IMG/VR virus record: IMGVR_UViG_3300032103_000278 | Coordinates: 1 to 26,554 of that record | DNA length: 26,554 nucleotides | Direction: 5' to 3' (one strand) | From: a virus | Lineage: Duplodnaviria > Caudoviricetes | Shown here: piece by piece, positions 2,633-14,024 of the stretch | Layout: each line of letters begins with the position of its first letter | How positions within the stretch are numbered: position 1 is the first letter of the stretch | Made by a program: the position numbers and the translations under genes | The notes under the pieces: model-generated | Seen by the model: only the letters and a program-made list of their open reading frames with translations | Databases searched by the model: none | Told to the model about the DNA's origin: nothing

Positions 2633-3079
2633 TTATTTGAAAGTTTGATTAAAGAATTTGTTTATTTCGTTTTCAACCATATCGTCAATTTGTTTGGCAT
2701 GGCCAATAAACTGACGTTTTGGTATGGTGGTTCTGTTGCCACGTCCGGCGGTGGTAGTACCTTTGTTATGAGCAGCTGCATATTTTAGGTCGGAGTAGAT
2801 GATTACAGCAGGACCTTCGGTTTTGTAGTGGATGCTACGCCCGAGGTTGGCAGTGTCGCCTGTAAGTATTTTTCGACTTGAACGTGCACCCGTAATACGT
2901 GGGTCTAACCGTCGTTTTACTTCTTTCCATTTTTCGCCAAAAAAACCTTCTTCTTCAAAGTTATTTTTAAACAAATCAACGGCATTTTTGCCGATAGTAA
3001 TGGGTAGGTTGCGGTTTATAAATTCTTCAATTTGCTGCCCTTTTTTAGTAAGCATAATGCTGAATTGTTTAGGGTTCAT
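2633..3079 (-). CDS. Phage virion morphogenesis protein (Mu gpG / tail completion S family)
   Basis: Motifs NFEEEGF, ILTGDTANLGRSI, YAAAHNKG, IPKRQFIG. Confidence 0.85.
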   Translation of the reverse strand: MNPKQFSIMLTKKGQQIEEFINRNLPITIGKNAVDLFKNNFEEEGFFGEKWKEVKRRLDPRITGARSSRKILTGDTANLGRSIHYKTEGPAVIIYSDLKYAAAHNKGTTTAGRGNRTTIPKRQFIGHAKQIDDMVENEINKFFNQTFK

Positions 3080-3166
3080 TATTATAATGTTTAATGATGT
3101 GAATGATTTTTTTTGCTTTCATAAAAAATATTTTTTAAATAATGATTAAATTGTAATTAAAAGTTG

Positions 3167-3176
3167 TATATTTGCA
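3167..3176 (+). promoter_or_regulatory. Bacteroidota -7 promoter element, antisense to the head operon
   Basis: TATATTTGCA matches TAnnTTTG. Confidence 0.65.
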
Positions 3177-3179
3177 GTG

Positions 3180-3249
3180 AGGTTTTAAACATAAATCGAC
3201 GGAGCAGTTTGGATGCTCCTTCCACGTGGTTTAAAACCTTATTTTTTTA
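3180..3249 (+). ncRNA. Candidate ~70-nt structured small RNA
   Basis: Begins just after the -7 box. Has an 11-bp closing stem (3180-3190 / 3229-3239), an inner hairpin ggagca/tgctcc (3201-3219) and a T-run at the end. Confidence 0.5.
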
Positions 3250-4540
3250 TATATCTGTTAATATCTGCAGGCATTCCATTCTTAATTGTATTCAAATCAA
3301 TATGGTTATAAATCACATAAGGTATTTCTGATTTATACATTTTATGAATTTTTACATTAACATACTTCACTTCATTATTTATAAATGTTTTATAATAAAA
3401 AAAGTAAGCTGTATCTAAATGTTTGCCTGCATCAACTTCGCTAAATCCTAAATACTCCCATTTCTTAAAATTCTCTGATATATTTAATGCATATAATCTA
3501 ACCGGATTGTCAACTGTATGGACCATTATTTTATTAATAGAACTTCGTAAAACAATCAACTGACCTGTTGCTATATTATCAGATTTTAATGTAAATCCTT
3601 TATTAGCATCAATAGTTTCTGTAAAATCTTTAACTATAGGTTTAAGATAGTCTTTATAAACATATTTGTTAATTTGCTTTCTATTTGATTTAGAAACATT
3701 CTCAAAATACGGATGATTTTCAGTAATCAACTTTCCGGTATCATAAGGATTACCGTCCAAGCCTTTTGCAGGAGGTGTTATTTTATCGGGTTTTGCAGTT
3801 GTCTGTGCATCTGTAGTTTTCCAGTCGCATTTGCAGTTCCAGAGGTTGCCGGGTTGGTTTGTTTGCCAGAAAGGATGGTTCTGAGGCAAAATAATACCTA
3901 CATAACCCAAATGCAGTTCGCGTGGATTGGCAGAACGTGATCGTATCCATGTGAGGTTTGGAAAGAGGTGTTTTTCCTGCAGAAAGGTATCCCATTGTTT
4001 GGCAGTACGGCAGCGTGCCACAAAGGTATTGTATTCTGTTTTCTGATACTGATTGAAACGAGCTGAAGCAAGTTTAGCTTTATTTATAAAGTCTTTTTTA
4101 TTACCTTTTTCTTTTTCTACATCAGCTTTTATAACATCGAGTTTTTGCTGCAACTGATAGGTTTTGTGAGCTGCAAAATTGGCAGCATTAAGGCGGAATT
4201 GCTGTACTTTTTCCCAGAATGGATGATTGTTGTCAATATCAGAAAAAACGCTGTCAATAGCTTTAATAAAGTTCGTGAGGTAAATATCGAAAAAATCTTT
4301 ATTTAAATCTTTTGTTTTTGAAGAGTAGATATCGGATAAGGCGTTGCGTGTTTTTGAAGTTCGGTTTATTTCGACAAGCTCAATGACCTTATCAATTGGC
4401 TTAGTGATAGGATGGGCAAAAGTTATCGTATCACTGTGGGCAGCACAGTTGCATCCATCAGGGTGATGACTGTAATATAGTTCTAAAACTTTATCGTTAA
4501 GTAATATTTCCGTTAGCCCCGACGGTGCGGGGCTTTGTCG
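3239..4540 (-). CDS. MuF (gpF-like) minor head protein with C-terminal extension, probably translated as a -1 frameshift fusion to the portal
   Basis: MuF motifs TEYNT, RELH, HPFW...PGNLWNCKC. The frame stays open from 4558, about 135 codons upstream of the annotated TTG at 4153, with no ATG/GTG/TTG in that stretch. Confidence 0.8.
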   Translation of the reverse strand, partial: RQSPAPSGLTEILLNDKVLELYYSHHPDGCNCAAHSDTITFAHPITKPIDKVIELVEINRTSKTRNALSDIYSSKTKDLNKDFFDIYLTNFIKAIDSVFSDIDNNHPFWEKVQQFRLNAANFAAHKTYQLQQKLDVIKADVEKEKGNKKDFINKAKLASARFNQYQKTEYNTFVARCRTAKQWDTFLQEKHLFPNLTWIRSRSANPRELHLGYVGIILPQNHPFWQTNQPGNLWNCKCDWKTTDAQTTAKPDKITPPAKGLDGNPYDTGKLITENHPYFENVSKSNRKQINKYVYKDYLKPIVKDFTETIDANKGFTLKSDNIATGQLIVLRSSINKIMVHTVDNPVRLYALNISENFKKWEYLGFSEVDAGKHLDTAYFFYYKTFINNEVKYVNVKIHKMYKSEIPYVIYNHIDLNTIKNGMPADINRYIKK

Positions 4541-5787
4541 AAAAAATTTCTTAGAGAGTTAAATAATGAAGACATAGAGATACGATTACTTAGAGTTATG
4601 GTATCACTGTTATTGTTTTGCTTTGTTTTATCAGGCTCATCTTCGGCAGGCTTATCTATTGTGTTTTTGCTTGGTTTAGGAATTCCGTATGTTTCGTAAA
4701 AATAATCGTCATCTATGGGTATAAGCCCTGCTAGTTGAGAATCAATAAGAAAACGTTGGTTAAGTGCTGTGTTGTCTTTTTCTATAACAAAATTAAAATA
4801 ACCACCGTTAGCTTTAAAGCCAAAGCATTCTAGAATTTTAATAAATTCGGTATTGAGTTCTGAAAGCAGATAGAGCTTATCAGATTCGGCAAAAGAAAGT
4901 TCGGAATTTTGATGCACTTCGCCTTTATAGTTTCCACCCTGGGCATCTGTGGTCATAGTGTTACCCAGGAATAATTTTGAAACTTGCTCGTCGCAAAATT
5001 TGCTAAGTTCTTTAAAAATATCTACACCTCCTGAACTGGCTCCTTTAGCTTCAACAAATTCGATATTGCAACCTTCTGGTGCTACTATGTGTGTAGCCCT
5101 GCTGGTGGCTTCCATAATCTTATTTAATAAATTAGCAGTTTCGATATCGCCATTAGAATAGGTTGCTTTGCGAAAAGGGAAGCCAAAAATTTCGGCAAAG
5201 GTGCTCCAGTCCTGCATGGCATTTTTTTTAAAAATAACATAAGGAGCTGCCTTAGCCAATAATCCTAAGTTGCGTTGTTGACCTGCAAAAATTGTGTAAT
5301 TGCTGGTGGGAGGAACAGCAAAATTTTCACCTTCGTCGTCATATGCTTCTTTGATAACTATTGATCGTTCGGGCAATACATTTTTTCGAGGAATAAGATT
5401 ATATCCAACCCCTTCGATGCTTAAACTATCAAAGTAAATCAGCGAAAAGCCAAAAGGTATTTTATCTAAAATATCCCAACACATTTGCCTGAAGAAAGGC
5501 ATATTGATAATGGTTTTTATGTTTTCATTTTCTTTGCCTGAGGCATCGAAAAACTTAATTTCGGAATTCAATACATTTAGTTTCCTTTTTTCCATTACTG
5601 CCGATAAATGCGTGTCGAGAATGATTTCGTCATACAAATCGAGTAAAAGCTTACGGCGAGGGTTTGTAATATTTTCGGCTGATTGTAAGGCGTTTCGCCA
5701 TTCTTTAATACCTTTAGCCGAACGATCCACCTGAGTTAAGGTGTAATTAAGAATTTGTATATTGTCGGTTTTCTTTTTAGAAGCCAT
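4513..5787 (-). CDS. Portal protein (DUF935 / Mu gp29-like)
   Basis: Motifs DTHLSAVMEKRK, GLLAKAAP, W..FAEIFGFP, SKLFLGNTMTT, GEVH. Confidence 0.9.
   Translation of the reverse strand: MASKKKTDNIQILNYTLTQVDRSAKGIKEWRNALQSAENITNPRRKLLLDLYDEIILDTHLSAVMEKRKLNVLNSEIKFFDASGKENENIKTIINMPFFRQMCWDILDKIPFGFSLIYFDSLSIEGVGYNLIPRKNVLPERSIVIKEAYDDEGENFAVPPTSNYTIFAGQQRNLGLLAKAAPYVIFKKNAMQDWSTFAEIFGFPFRKATYSNGDIETANLLNKIMEATSRATHIVAPEGCNIEFVEAKGASSGGVDIFKELSKFCDEQVSKLFLGNTMTTDAQGGNYKGEVHQNSELSFAESDKLYLLSELNTEFIKILECFGFKANGGYFNFVIEKDNTALNQRFLIDSQLAGLIPIDDDYFYETYGIPKPSKNTIDKPAEDEPDKTKQNNNSDTITLSNRISMSSLFNSLRNFFDKAPHRRG
4515..4546 (-). promoter_or_regulatory. Putative -1 ribosomal frameshift cassette
   Basis: In-frame T TTT TTC (4546-4540), 5-nt spacer, then a 7-bp hairpin AGCCCCG-caccgt-CGGGGCT (4534-4515). 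Confidence 0.75.
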
Positions 5788-5816: not shown

Positions 5817-6221
5817 TTAGTATGTTCTTGGGATAAATCCTGATTTTACGAAAGAGATTACATTGCCATCTTCGTTTTTGGCGGGTTTTGCGCCGTGTAA
5901 AGCTGTTTTTCCTGCCATAAGTTTTTCAAGTTCCTTGATGCTTCGTTCGTAACCTGAAGCTATTGAAACGGGCATATTATCCAATACATCGGCAATAATA
6001 TAGCGAGCTATATTGCAAGCAATATCGAGAAGCATCGGGTTTCTTTCATCAATAGGTTTATTGAATAAATCGGGTATATCGTAATAGTTGCAAAGGTGAG
6101 CTTCTATAATGCTAAGTGCTTTTTTTATAGCAAATTCCACTGCATTGCTATCGTTACGCGATATAGCTTCTATTACTTCGGGGTAAATGCTGTAATTAAG
6201 GTCAGATTCGGAAATAAACAT
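5817..6221 (-). CDS. Head-tail adaptor (Mu gp36 / DUF1320-like)
   Basis: Motifs MFISESDL, YYDIPDLF, RNPMLL..ACNIARY, YERSIKELE; lies between terminase and portal. Confidence 0.8.
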   Translation of the reverse strand: MFISESDLNYSIYPEVIEAISRNDSNAVEFAIKKALSIIEAHLCNYYDIPDLFNKPIDERNPMLLDIACNIARYIIADVLDNMPVSIASGYERSIKELEKLMAGKTALHGAKPAKNEDGNVISFVKSGFIPRTY

Positions 6222-6240: not shown

Positions 6241-7749
6241 TTAATATTTGTTGTGTCGCGATTGAAATCCGAAAATAGGGTCAACAGCAGCACGTATGTG
6301 TTTGCTTAAAATAGCGATGGCAGCTTCGTCGGCATCTGGGCTGTCGTCGTGTTCTTTACTGCCGGGTTCAATTGAAAGAAGTTGAGCAATACCAACCTGA
6401 ATATCGCCTGAAGCTTTCTCTTTTATATTGTAAAAAATACGGCTTTGCTGGTAAAAAGGAAGCATAGAAAGCATACGGTCGAATTTGTTTGTTTTAGGTC
6501 TATCGGCTTTTATAAGCGGAATGTTTTTTTTTCTTTTGGCGGATATTTCGTTGTAAACCATCATAAGAGCATCGTTCCAGAATTGAGATTCAAAATACCA
6601 GTTAAGGTGAACAGTTTTAGGCAATTGTTCAGCGAAATCGAACATAAAGTTAATAGCCTCAGCCATTTTGCATTGTCGAACGAAAGCTTTGATAAGAAAA
6701 AAATGTTTGTTTTTTATACCCCAGACTTTCACTGCGTTAAAGTCGGCAGTTTTAGCATCGCTATAAGCTACATCCCAAAACCCTATGATGTGGTCGAAAT
6801 GGTCGATACGGGGGCATTCAGCCCATTTGATCATTTCATTTTTAAAAATAGTACCCTGTATATAAGGCTTGTTGTTGAATTCGGCCTGAAAAGAAAGAGT
6901 TCCGATTTGACGTTGTAGCATAATGTAATAATCGCGGGTATATTTTTCTATCCAAAGAGGGTTCAAAAGGGCATCGGTAGCATTCTGCTGACTAAATTCA
7001 AAACCCTCGCGAGTGTCGCGTATTTCGGTAAGTATTGTATGCGGTGCAAATATGTTGTTAACGTGAATGTAACGGCTGCCTCGTTCGTCCATACAAGGGA
7101 TTAAATCTTCGCAAGCCCAGTTGGCAGCTTCTCGGATACGTTTAGGGTTTTTACACATTTGTTTTGTATCCCAGTCGTCGGCTGCAATATAATCGGGGCG
7201 GAACTGTTTGTATCGGATGCCACGAGGGCTTTGTCCCATACCGAGTGAAAAGAAAGCACAATCGTTGTTTGTAATAAAATTGGCTTCTTCCCAGTTTCCG
7301 AATCTAACTTGCTTACCAAAATCGTTGATTAAACGTTGGTTGCTTTCAAATTCGGCTTGAAGGTCGGAAAGAAGTTTTTGCCCTTTTTTTTCGTTTTGCC
7401 CGACGAGAAGCATTACTTTAAGGTCGTTGTTAGCCCATAGCCAAAGGGGAATAAGTAAGTCGACATGAGTAGATTTGGCTAATCCACGGCCCCAGCCAAG
7501 TAAAATTTTTATATGCTTATTTTTACGGATACGATAGGCTAATTTAACATGAAAAGGTGCACATTTGCTAGTTGCATAGTGAGGGAAGTAATATTCAACA
7601 AAAGCTTCATAATCTTTTTTTAGGCTTTCGATACGAGTTTCTTTATCGGAATCGCTTTCAAAAATATTGATGTCGGTAGCACTTTGTATATTTTTACAAA
7701 GTTTTTTGTAGTTTTCGATAGCTTTTTTATCGCGGATAGAAATACTCAT
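6241..7749 (-). CDS. terL: Terminase large subunit
   Basis: Walker A-like RGLAKST, Walker B-like PDYIAADD, nuclease motifs FWDVAY and HDDSPDA. Confidence 0.92.
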   Translation of the reverse strand: MSISIRDKKAIENYKKLCKNIQSATDINIFESDSDKETRIESLKKDYEAFVEYYFPHYATSKCAPFHVKLAYRIRKNKHIKILLGWGRGLAKSTHVDLLIPLWLWANNDLKVMLLVGQNEKKGQKLLSDLQAEFESNQRLINDFGKQVRFGNWEEANFITNNDCAFFSLGMGQSPRGIRYKQFRPDYIAADDWDTKQMCKNPKRIREAANWACEDLIPCMDERGSRYIHVNNIFAPHTILTEIRDTREGFEFSQQNATDALLNPLWIEKYTRDYYIMLQRQIGTLSFQAEFNNKPYIQGTIFKNEMIKWAECPRIDHFDHIIGFWDVAYSDAKTADFNAVKVWGIKNKHFFLIKAFVRQCKMAEAINFMFDFAEQLPKTVHLNWYFESQFWNDALMMVYNEISAKRKKNIPLIKADRPKTNKFDRMLSMLPFYQQSRIFYNIKEKASGDIQVGIAQLLSIEPGSKEHDDSPDADEAAIAILSKHIRAAVDPIFGFQSRHNKY

Positions 7750-7760
7750 TTAAAAAGGAT

Positions 7761-8207
7761 TTAATTGTTTTTTAAAGCTTGTTTTTCGTCGATAAATTTC
7801 CAAGATAAATCTGAAAATAGTTTAAGATTTTTGGGGTCGGTTTTAGATAGCCAGGCAATAAATTCTTCAAAAATTTCGATGTATTTATAAATAGGTTGTT
7901 CTGAGAATTTTTCGATTTCTCTTAAAAGTTGAGCTTTAGTGTCGCTTTGGGCTTTGGTAGGAATATTATTATTATCTTTAATTTGTTGGTTAACAGCAGT
8001 CAATTGAATAAAAGTATCTTTTAGTAGCGATTTTCGTGTAATGTTATTTTGCTGAATAAGTATATCCCAGTCGAAGTTTTTTCGCCATTTACTAATTGTT
8101 TGTTCAGAAATGCCGATTATTTCGGATATTTCTTTTTGCAAAACACCTTTGATAAATAGCGATTGGGCAATTGCTCTTTTATCGGACATTGTTTTTTTTG
8201 AAGTCAT
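7761..8207 (-). CDS. terS: Terminase small subunit (HTH, DUF1804-like)
   Basis: N-terminal HTH QKEISEIIGISEQTISKW...W, directly upstream of terL. Confidence 0.8.
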   Translation of the reverse strand: MTSKKTMSDKRAIAQSLFIKGVLQKEISEIIGISEQTISKWRKNFDWDILIQQNNITRKSLLKDTFIQLTAVNQQIKDNNNIPTKAQSDTKAQLLREIEKFSEQPIYKYIEIFEEFIAWLSKTDPKNLKLFSDLSWKFIDEKQALKNN

Positions 8208-8349
8208 TTATTGGTTATTAGGATATTGAGTTTATAACCGCTAATTACTTAAATGCAATAAGCGGATTATGCAAATATCGAGATATACCTATAAATTTTA
8301 AAGAAAAGGAGCGAGCAGTGCAATATTTATAGCATAGAATGCGGTGTTA

Positions 8350-8381
8350 TTTGTGTACATGTATTTTGTGTTATATGTTTG
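8350..8381 (+). promoter_or_regulatory. Bacteroidota -33/-7 promoter for the capsid-lysis-tail operon
   Basis: TTTG (8350-8353), 20-nt spacer, TATGTTTG (8374-8381), within the divergent intergenic region. Confidence 0.65.
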
Positions 8382-8476
8382 CTCTCTAAATGATTTGTAG
8401 TTTTTTTCATAATTTGGATTTTCCGGCTGCATCGTTTTGACTGTTAACCTTGCAGCCGGTTTTTAAAATAAAAGAA

Positions 8477-13685: not shown

Positions 13686-14024
13686 ATGACAAAGAAAACA
13701 GATAATAAAGTAGAATCATTACCATGTGGAGTAAGTTACGAACAGTTGGCAACATGGAAAGAGGAAACGGAAGTTCATTTAGTAGCTGTAAAAACAGAAT
13801 CGGGTGTTGTAAATGGATATTTTAAAAAGCCCAATTTGCAGGTAATAGGAGCAGCGAGTAAATATGCAACAACAGACCCTGTAAAAAGTGGATTGATATT
13901 ATTTGAGAGTTGTTGGCTTGCAGGCGACCCTGAGATGCGAGAAGTAGACGAAATAAAGATGTCGGCCATAGGGAAGTTGGGAGATTTATTTAAAGTATAT
14001 GAAGCAGAAGTAAAAAAGTTATAG
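13686..14024 (+). CDS. Tail assembly chaperone (gpG-like)
   Basis: Lies between tube and tape measure; ends GTA AAA AAG TTA TAG. Confidence 0.8.
   Translation: MTKKTDNKVESLPCGVSYEQLATWKEETEVHLVAVKTESGVVNGYFKKPNLQVIGAASKYATTDPVKSGLILFESCWLAGDPEMREVDEIKMSAIGKLGDLFKVYEAEVKKL

Follow-up and report, generated by a model that had tools for sequence, protein, structure and literature searches.

A conserved signal for probable −1 ribosomal frameshifting from portal to MuF in a family of tailed phages

The stretch of DNA analysed here, called the window, is a 26,554-base virus record (IMG/VR IMGVR_UViG_3300032103_000278; Caudoviricetes), whose 29 open reading frames (ORFs) were scanned against profiles. 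On its minus strand, a Mu-type portal gene is followed by a frame for a MuF protein, and the two overlap at a site where ribosomes may pass from the former into the latter. An earlier note, made from the sequence alone, had proposed a programmed −1 frameshift at this site, and all its coordinates (heptamer, hairpin, upstream TAA, TTG at 4153 and a product of 416+433 residues) hold on base-by-base recomputation. The features concerned are given below, in amino acids (aa), nucleotides (nt) and base pairs (bp).

4513..5787, minus strand: Mu-type portal gene, 424 aa, the zero-frame (short) product (PF06074; PHROG 113 and 35074)
4547..4671, minus strand: charged, poorly conserved linker between the portal core (ending near Y364/P372) and the FF site, from the portal alignment
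4559..4561, minus strand: TAA four codons ahead of the shift site, closing the −1 frame
4540..4546, minus strand: slippery heptamer T_TTT_TTC (X_XXY_YYZ) in the portal frame, codons F415–F416, recomputed from the sequence
4535..4539, minus strand: spacer, 5 nt to the A–U pair and 6 nt to the G–C core, free in sequence and fixed in length
4515..4534, minus strand: 7-bp GC-rich hairpin AGCCCCG/CGGGGCT, predicted frameshift stimulator
3239..4558, minus strand: MuF open frame (−1), 439 codons, 433 of them after the shift site
4154..4540, minus strand: start-less −1 stretch, 129 codons before the first ATG/GTG/TTG, under purifying selection as protein, with an LY/YY..H..C.C motif
3824..4048, minus strand: MuF (Phage_Mu_F) core domain, PF04233, frame residues 171–245; PHROG 220
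3242..3676, minus strand: C-terminal domain (CTD), frame residues about 295–439, LPD3-like, predicted BECR-type RNase fold

The portal–MuF junction and its conservation

The portal protein matches PF06074 with an E-value of 8e-69 (233 bits against a curated cut-off of 23.9), which assigns it to the Mu type, and its family profile matches two solved portal sequences, 9khx and 8rka. The MuF frame matches PF04233 at 7e-5 (24 bits, below the cut-off of 29.6) and PHROG 220 at 2e-15; most full-length relatives that share its tail domain reach the PF04233 cut-off, and its position directly after the portal gene is that expected of the family. At the junction, the hairpin is 80% GC inside a region of 35% GC, its final base opens the portal stop codon, and its fold energy in the window alone is −13.4 kcal/mol (z −2.15). 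The two strands of the window hold 78 TTTTTTY sites, and such a stem accompanies only one of them, the site at the portal end. The first ATG, GTG or TTG of the MuF frame is the TTG at 4153, 135 codons in, and the first ATG lies at 3526; with local codon use, a run of 135 codons lacking NTG would arise by chance with a probability of 0.013, which is modest by itself. From the window alone, the case for recoding is modest.

With 247 loci fetched from three collections, the comparison covers 248 loci including the window. In 199 of them, isolate genomes and phage records among them, MuF lies in the −1 frame and overlaps the portal end; 15 are in-frame fusions, 8 have MuF in +1, one has it in −1 but not overlapping, no MuF is seen in 16, and 9 are cut. 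All 199 loci with the −1 overlap carry an in-frame slippery heptamer inside it (T_TTT_TTC in 187, T_TTT_TTT in 11, A_AAA_AAG in 1), and 186 of the 199, with 110 distinct 41-nt junctions, have a stem by our test (at least 6 bp, at least 4 G–C pairs, starting 5–7 nt after the heptamer). After dereplication to 74 loci under 80% portal identity, the stem is present at 70; among the controls, it occurs at 4 of 171 other T6 sites and at 152 of 7400 random positions. The spacer profile has its maximum at 6 nt, a length at which 66 of the 74 loci have the stem. A further sample of 30 loci, drawn evenly from 251 genomes of one host family and partly overlapping the earlier loci, contains 25 with the −1 overlap, and T_TTT_TTC occurs in 24 and the stem in 23 of these 25. 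The signal is conserved far beyond chance, as the earlier note had anticipated for heptamer and hairpin. An upstream Shine-Dalgarno-like motif is not conserved (11 of 74 loci). The position of the shift is also delimited: in 5 of 74 loci a stop immediately ahead of the site closes the −1 frame, and in 21 of 74 the portal stop follows within 0–1 codons, and these loci pin the shift to the heptamer.

The stem arms themselves vary, with 13 different 5-bp arm pairs, including G–C/C–G flips, in the dereplicated set. In an unguided MAFFT alignment of 62 of the 74 loci, 79.7% of cells are paired and double changes occur at 5 of 5 pairs, giving 16 double-change cells, a value reached in 0 of 500 shuffles. 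However, the relatives share ancestry, slid registers give as many such cells (33 at −3, 19 at +1), and the covariation score at the −3 register equals that at the true one; only the percentage paired separates the true register (79.7 against at most 60.8 in the slid controls). Since the controls match the double-change counts, covariation is supportive only through the percentage paired. The stem covariation foreseen in the earlier note is borne out in that the arms change and the pairs are kept, and exceeds the slid controls only in part.

F415 and F416 are the only near-invariant residues after the portal core, past a linker that cannot be aligned, and each is more than 90% conserved among 69 aligned portals. 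Such conservation is what would be expected if FF and the following AP..G were kept simply as portal residues and the hairpin were a terminator or stability element, with no recoding at all. But the codon choice is fixed, not the residues alone: T_TTT_TTY encodes the portal's last FF in 72 of 73 cases, against 6 of 40 for FF in the portal body and 30 of 210 for FF in other ORFs, and the constraint therefore acts on nucleotides. Moreover, the portal stop lies 0–15 codons after the site, often in the spacer, so that the hairpin is frequently untranslated in frame 0; five T in the next 8 nt follow only 1 of 70 hairpins, and the U-run is not on the side that a terminator would require, whichever strand is read. 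An explanation by portal residues and a terminator is accordingly very improbable.

The signal goes together with MuF. The linker is absent from portals that do not have MuF as the next gene, and linker, FF and T6 are found in 0 of 13 portals of 372–386 aa that are followed by another ATG-started gene (among the 16 loci without MuF); the other 3 of the 16 are contig ends, where the FF codons are present. A group of short portals of 372–386 aa (L012, L094, L096–L099, L103, L106, L108, L173, L174, L177 and L179; L numbers denote loci) has as its next gene, directly after the portal, one of about 180 aa that resembles a tail terminator.

Translation of MuF and its competing explanations

An in-frame heptamer inside the overlap, a 3′ structure, constraint on synonymous sites and a coding downstream frame without a conserved start of its own are found together at this junction. 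We consider that the conserved recoding signal most likely directs a programmed −1 ribosomal frameshift from portal to MuF, with a probability of roughly 0.85 on sequence grounds. A fraction of ribosomes would slip by −1 at T_TTT_TTC, two tRNA-Phe moving from UUU UUC to UUU UUU while the hairpin resists unwinding, and would read on into the start-less MuF frame. The predicted products are a portal–linker–MuF–CTD fusion of 849 aa (416+433), with a mass of about 97 kDa, beside the 424-aa portal of 48 kDa, and the shift rate would set the ratio of long to short.

The start-less stretch bears the marks of a coding sequence. Codons 10–129 after the site share 68% aa identity with the closest relative, L001, and the substitutions fall 25/15/41 by codon position. 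Over the start-less codons, the nonsynonymous rate (dN) is 0.19 and the synonymous rate (dS) 0.70 (dN/dS ~0.27), and the annotated part is similar, with a dN of 0.18; the stretch therefore evolves as protein. Among the 74 loci, the first ATG/GTG/TTG comes 1–133 codons after the site, and the first ATG 1–355 codons after it or not at all. The LY motif is found at codons 9–45 in 55 of the 74, and in 27 of these 55 it lies upstream of the first possible start.

A frame break in a homopolymer may of course be a sequencing or assembly indel, the true gene being one in-frame ORF, and the earlier note had named such an error as something that would undo its proposal. In-frame fusions do exist (PHROG 35074; 15 of 248 loci), and a few loci look indel-broken (L128, L134, L230). 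The −1 layout is, however, shared by 199 loci from three collections, each with a frame-0 portal stop following, and their junctions come in 110 distinct forms; one Logan contig (depth 35), which may be the window's own source, matches 3800–5300 across the site without an indel. An indel artefact is effectively refuted. Off-pattern junctions or MuF frames are seen at L058, L112, L128, L134/L282, L230, L247, L065, L293 and L305; most of these keep T6C and the hairpin and seem to carry a nearby indel, by decay or assembly error, and L112 has a junction without signal or run.

Other layouts of the same gene pair are found in the family. First, of 17 distinct in-frame portal–MuF genes, 6 keep T_TTT_TTC and the hairpin in phase, and a −1 shift in these would end after 22–26 codons and yield a short portal; the signal is also kept in the fused layout of two annotated Porphyromonas phage records and L290. 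Second, the linker of 8 of the 17 contains an A10 or T10 run, the sole run of at least 9 in the gene, whereas in the 189,742 nt of the 74 loci with the −1 layout such a run occurs three times, twice at the shift site; ten-base runs in metagenome assemblies may have the wrong length, so that the frame class of these fusions is less sure than the presence of the run. Third, six loci with MuF in +1 have (C/T)TT TTT TCG and an 8–11 bp stem 4–6 nt after TCG, which by sequence fits a −2 or +1 shift, as in the L011-type clade. In a quick tree of 66 portals, the fused state with signal needs 4 changes, at least 2 of them on well-supported branches, and once it is nested within the −1 group; sister to the window's clade is a group made up of the −2/+1 and T10 loci. 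Further A-run junctions were seen. In the fusion linker of L124, A_AAA_AAG at codon 414 closes an A10 run, a 9-bp stem begins 5 nt downstream, and the −1 frame stops after one codon, which is the layout of Escherichia coli dnaX; L045 (at 3742) has A_AAA_AAG and L277 (phage fF4) A9, both with MuF in −1, and L079 has A8 with MuF in +1.

These runs bear on whether the fusion is made not by the ribosome but by RNA polymerase slipping on the T6 run. Relatives use three phases around the T-run at a similar distance to the hairpin, and the A10/T10 runs of the 8 in-frame fusions are typical of polymerase slippage. Nevertheless, 66 of 74 loci have a run of just 6 T, whereas efficient slippage is described for runs of 9, and in the known case of stimulation by a stem the hairpin lies 5′ of the run (both from PMC5009743). 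A 5′ stem is present at 3 of 74 loci, like the background of 91 in 3700, and the conserved stem is 3′ and would not yet be transcribed; the X_XXY_YYZ phase relative to the portal frame is kept in both the −1 and the fused classes. In the window, there is at this site neither a run of at least nine A/T nor a 5′ hairpin by a shorter run. With a run of six T and no 5′ stem, polymerase slippage is therefore unlikely for the window, and as an account of the fusion we regard it as quite improbable.

Together with the doubts already given about double changes and run lengths, several observations weigh against the frameshift. In Flavobacterium phage lotta8-1, portal and MuF are separate genes and the signal is absent, and it is therefore widespread in the family and not universal; among the 17 fusions, one (L270) has neither heptamer nor run and two have only A8. 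An ATG/GTG/TTG lies within 15 codons of the site in 32 of 74 relatives and an ATG within 18 codons in 17 of 74; the position of the window's ATA TTA is occupied by ATG ATG in L001; and Hankyphage, a phage in Bacteroides thetaiotaomicron with the −1 layout, carries in p00 the full signal, yet an ATG overlaps its portal stop and MuF is annotated from it. Virion proteomics of Hankyphage detected MuF by 3 peptides and the portal by 20 (PMC12135933, S6 table), in gel fractions that give proteins and coarse fractions and cannot separate a fusion from free MuF.

These start codons, with the NTG that often overlaps the portal stop in the gut Bacteroidaceae clade, would suit a separate synthesis of MuF by coupled or non-canonical initiation just past the portal stop, at the ATA at 4507 in the window or at ATG/GTG/TTG/CTG in gut relatives, the hairpin serving only to tune that initiation or to protect the mRNA. 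On the other hand, the 15 codons after the site are free of ATG/GTG/TTG in 42 of 74 loci, and GTT or CTT can stand at the aligned codon. Separate initiation also leaves unexplained why T_TTT_TTY is in phase (72 of 73), why the spacer is fixed at 6 nt, why the −1 frame is open from the heptamer on, and why the signal persists inside in-frame fusions, where a start is not needed. We judge it unlikely as the general explanation. Because of the early ATGs in 17 of 74 loci, in L001 and in Hankyphage p00, some free MuF is also possible beside the product of a −1 shift. The lack of MuF starts that the earlier note expected among homologues is therefore true of a conserved start among the 74 loci, and does not extend to every locus or to the closest relative.

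For the fusion itself, the portal–MuF protein that the earlier note predicted has natural in-frame equivalents of 803–837 aa (P0124, P0126) carrying the same tail domain as the window's MuF. Its incorporation would mean that a minority of portal-ring subunits carry MuF and a variable effector domain into the head. Since the Mu portal undergoes cleavage as the head is assembled, the MuF part might be released at the linker. The family would reach short and long products by several routes, namely −1 entry (the window and most relatives), −1 exit from a fusion, −2/+1 shift and polymerase slippage on A10/T10, and several recoding layouts in one gene family therefore suggest selection for both products. 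A larger proposal is that Bacteroidota Mu-like phages mix their portal ring from two isoforms of one gene, that the ratio of short to long is an essential and tunable control of MuF dose, and that lineages switch among the four routes while keeping both isoforms; we favour it slightly, with confidence not far above even.

Relation to known systems

Recoding in tailed phages has been described for tail chaperones, capsids and tail tubes. No description of a portal–MuF frameshift was found in a search that left most subscription papers and supplements outside, and a prior description is possible. The word "frameshift" is absent from the main texts of PMC5576092, PMC11699363, PMC10083569, PMC12135933 and PMC5512222 and appears once, for spanins, in that of PMC10367356; "portal" is absent from PMC10885494 and from the available part of PMC5009743. 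What appears to be new is the proposed recoding site and its product at the portal; the mechanism is already known, as are in-frame fusions, portal–MuF–PBECR proteins having been published before (Iyer 2017; PMC5512222).

In tail assembly chaperone frameshifts of the lambda gpG/gpGT type, with a −1 shift (−2 in Mu; PMC2628397), a heptamer likewise lies near the 3′ end of a gene of the structural module, and short and C-terminally extended products are likewise made in a set ratio; the putative site of SPP1 gene 17.5, UUUUUUC, is the same heptamer as that of the window's portal (PMC6316719; PMC5009743). In the window, the portal gene takes this place, a complete minor head protein bearing an effector domain would form the extension, and the virion probably contains both products. 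In T3, T7, A2, A118, PSA and SPP1 (gp17.1*), a fraction of a virion protein is likewise C-terminally extended by frameshifting (PMC5009743; PMC6316719), but extensions of capsid and tail-tube proteins are mostly surface Ig-like domains on high-copy proteins, whereas the portal–MuF extension would place a variable enzyme-like domain at the portal vertex. In SPP1, gp7 binds the portal, and one to two copies of it enter the head in this way (PMC5576092; PMC6316719); a portal–MuF fusion would achieve the same through a covalent link.

The dnaX gene, with one short and one long product (tau/gamma), offers a parallel in variety, with three routes in different lineages: −1 exit from a long ORF in E. 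coli, reversed −1 entry in candidates such as Chlorobium, and polymerase slippage on a 9-base run in Thermus (PMC5009743). The portal–MuF layouts match all three routes in sequence and add a −2/+1 form. In contrast to dnaX, portal–MuF concerns a phage head protein, a U-rich heptamer and no conserved Shine-Dalgarno-like motif; spacers of −1 sites are 5–9 nt (PMC5009743). The MuF polymorphic toxins (Jamet 2017; Bxa, Apk2) likewise have muf directly after portal and variable CTDs, but papers on them treat muf as independently started, and the window's MuF lacks an adjacent protein immunity gene.

If the frameshift is real, it would provide a mechanism for how low-copy MuF proteins and their toxin domains reach the head and are dosed, an open question, and muf starts would be mis-called across a large group of Bacteroidota phages of the gut, the mouth and aquatic habitats. 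If the two isoforms are also real, many of the Bacteroidales MuF toxins that are studied as free proteins would in nature be tethered to the portal by fusion, and their N-terminus would be mis-annotated. A gene family that interchanges four layouts would offer a natural experiment in recoding, as dnaX does. Systems for testing exist: Hankyphage for the −1 layout, and the annotated Porphyromonas phage records for the fused layout with the signal kept.

The MuF tail domain and the rest of the window

The tail of MuF, called toxin-like in the earlier note, may be so, judging by a middling fold match and conserved polar residues. The CTDs among relatives include glutamine deamidase, PBECR2, LPD3 and CdiA-like domains, and one MuF relative with the window's tail domain (P0141) carries an intein-like insert. 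The 160-nt gap between MuF and the neck gene wholly contains no ORF of immunity size (at least 40 codons), so that this part of a toxin locus is missing there. The remaining features of the region are as follows.

3161..3241, no strand assigned: stem-loop after the MuF stop, then a TAnnTTTG motif on the plus strand (3167–3174) facing MuF
2633..3079, minus strand: neck/virion morphogenesis gene after MuF, by profile matches
5817–6221, minus strand: gp36-like adaptor in the upstream head module, by profile matches
6241–7749, minus strand: terminase large subunit in the upstream head module, by profile matches
7761–8207, minus strand: terminase small subunit in the head module, in the same direction as portal, by profile matches

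Directly after the MuF stop, a long stem-loop is followed by GCAAATATA, and the plus strand reads TATATTTG at 3167–3174, which we take to be a Bacteroidota −7 promoter box. The TAnnTTTG motif occurs within 130 nt of the MuF stop in 73 distinct sequences among 228 loci, mostly after hairpins, and places similar to 3161–3241 are found in L088, L104, L250, L089 and others; RNAalifold found no structure of the stem-loop shared among the sequences of 5 relatives. Judging from the motif, a short antisense RNA could be driven from here, a candidate RNA antitoxin for RNase-like tails.

The minus strand also encodes a tail-terminator-like gene, besides the terminase subunits, adaptor, portal, MuF frame and neck gene, and the plus strand encodes protease, capsid, sheath, tube and tape-measure genes. 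A 240-nt gap (8207–8450) separates the packaging and head-completion genes on the minus strand from the diverging protease–capsid–tail genes on the plus strand, and Hankyphage p00 is split alike. No transposase turned up among the 29 ORFs scanned, a scan without a dedicated test for Mu-like phages on a record that may be partial. The host is probably a member of the Bacteroidota, because the nearest named portal relatives, at ~50% identity, are in Bacteroidales genomes. A further slippery sequence, A_AAA_AAG, stands in frame at 14012–14018 on the plus strand, two codons before the stop of ORF 13686–14024, a 112-aa gene between tail tube and tape measure whose −1 frame is open for about 70 codons. 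It looks like an ordinary G/GT tail-chaperone frameshift, and from this resemblance the phage likely has two −1 sites.

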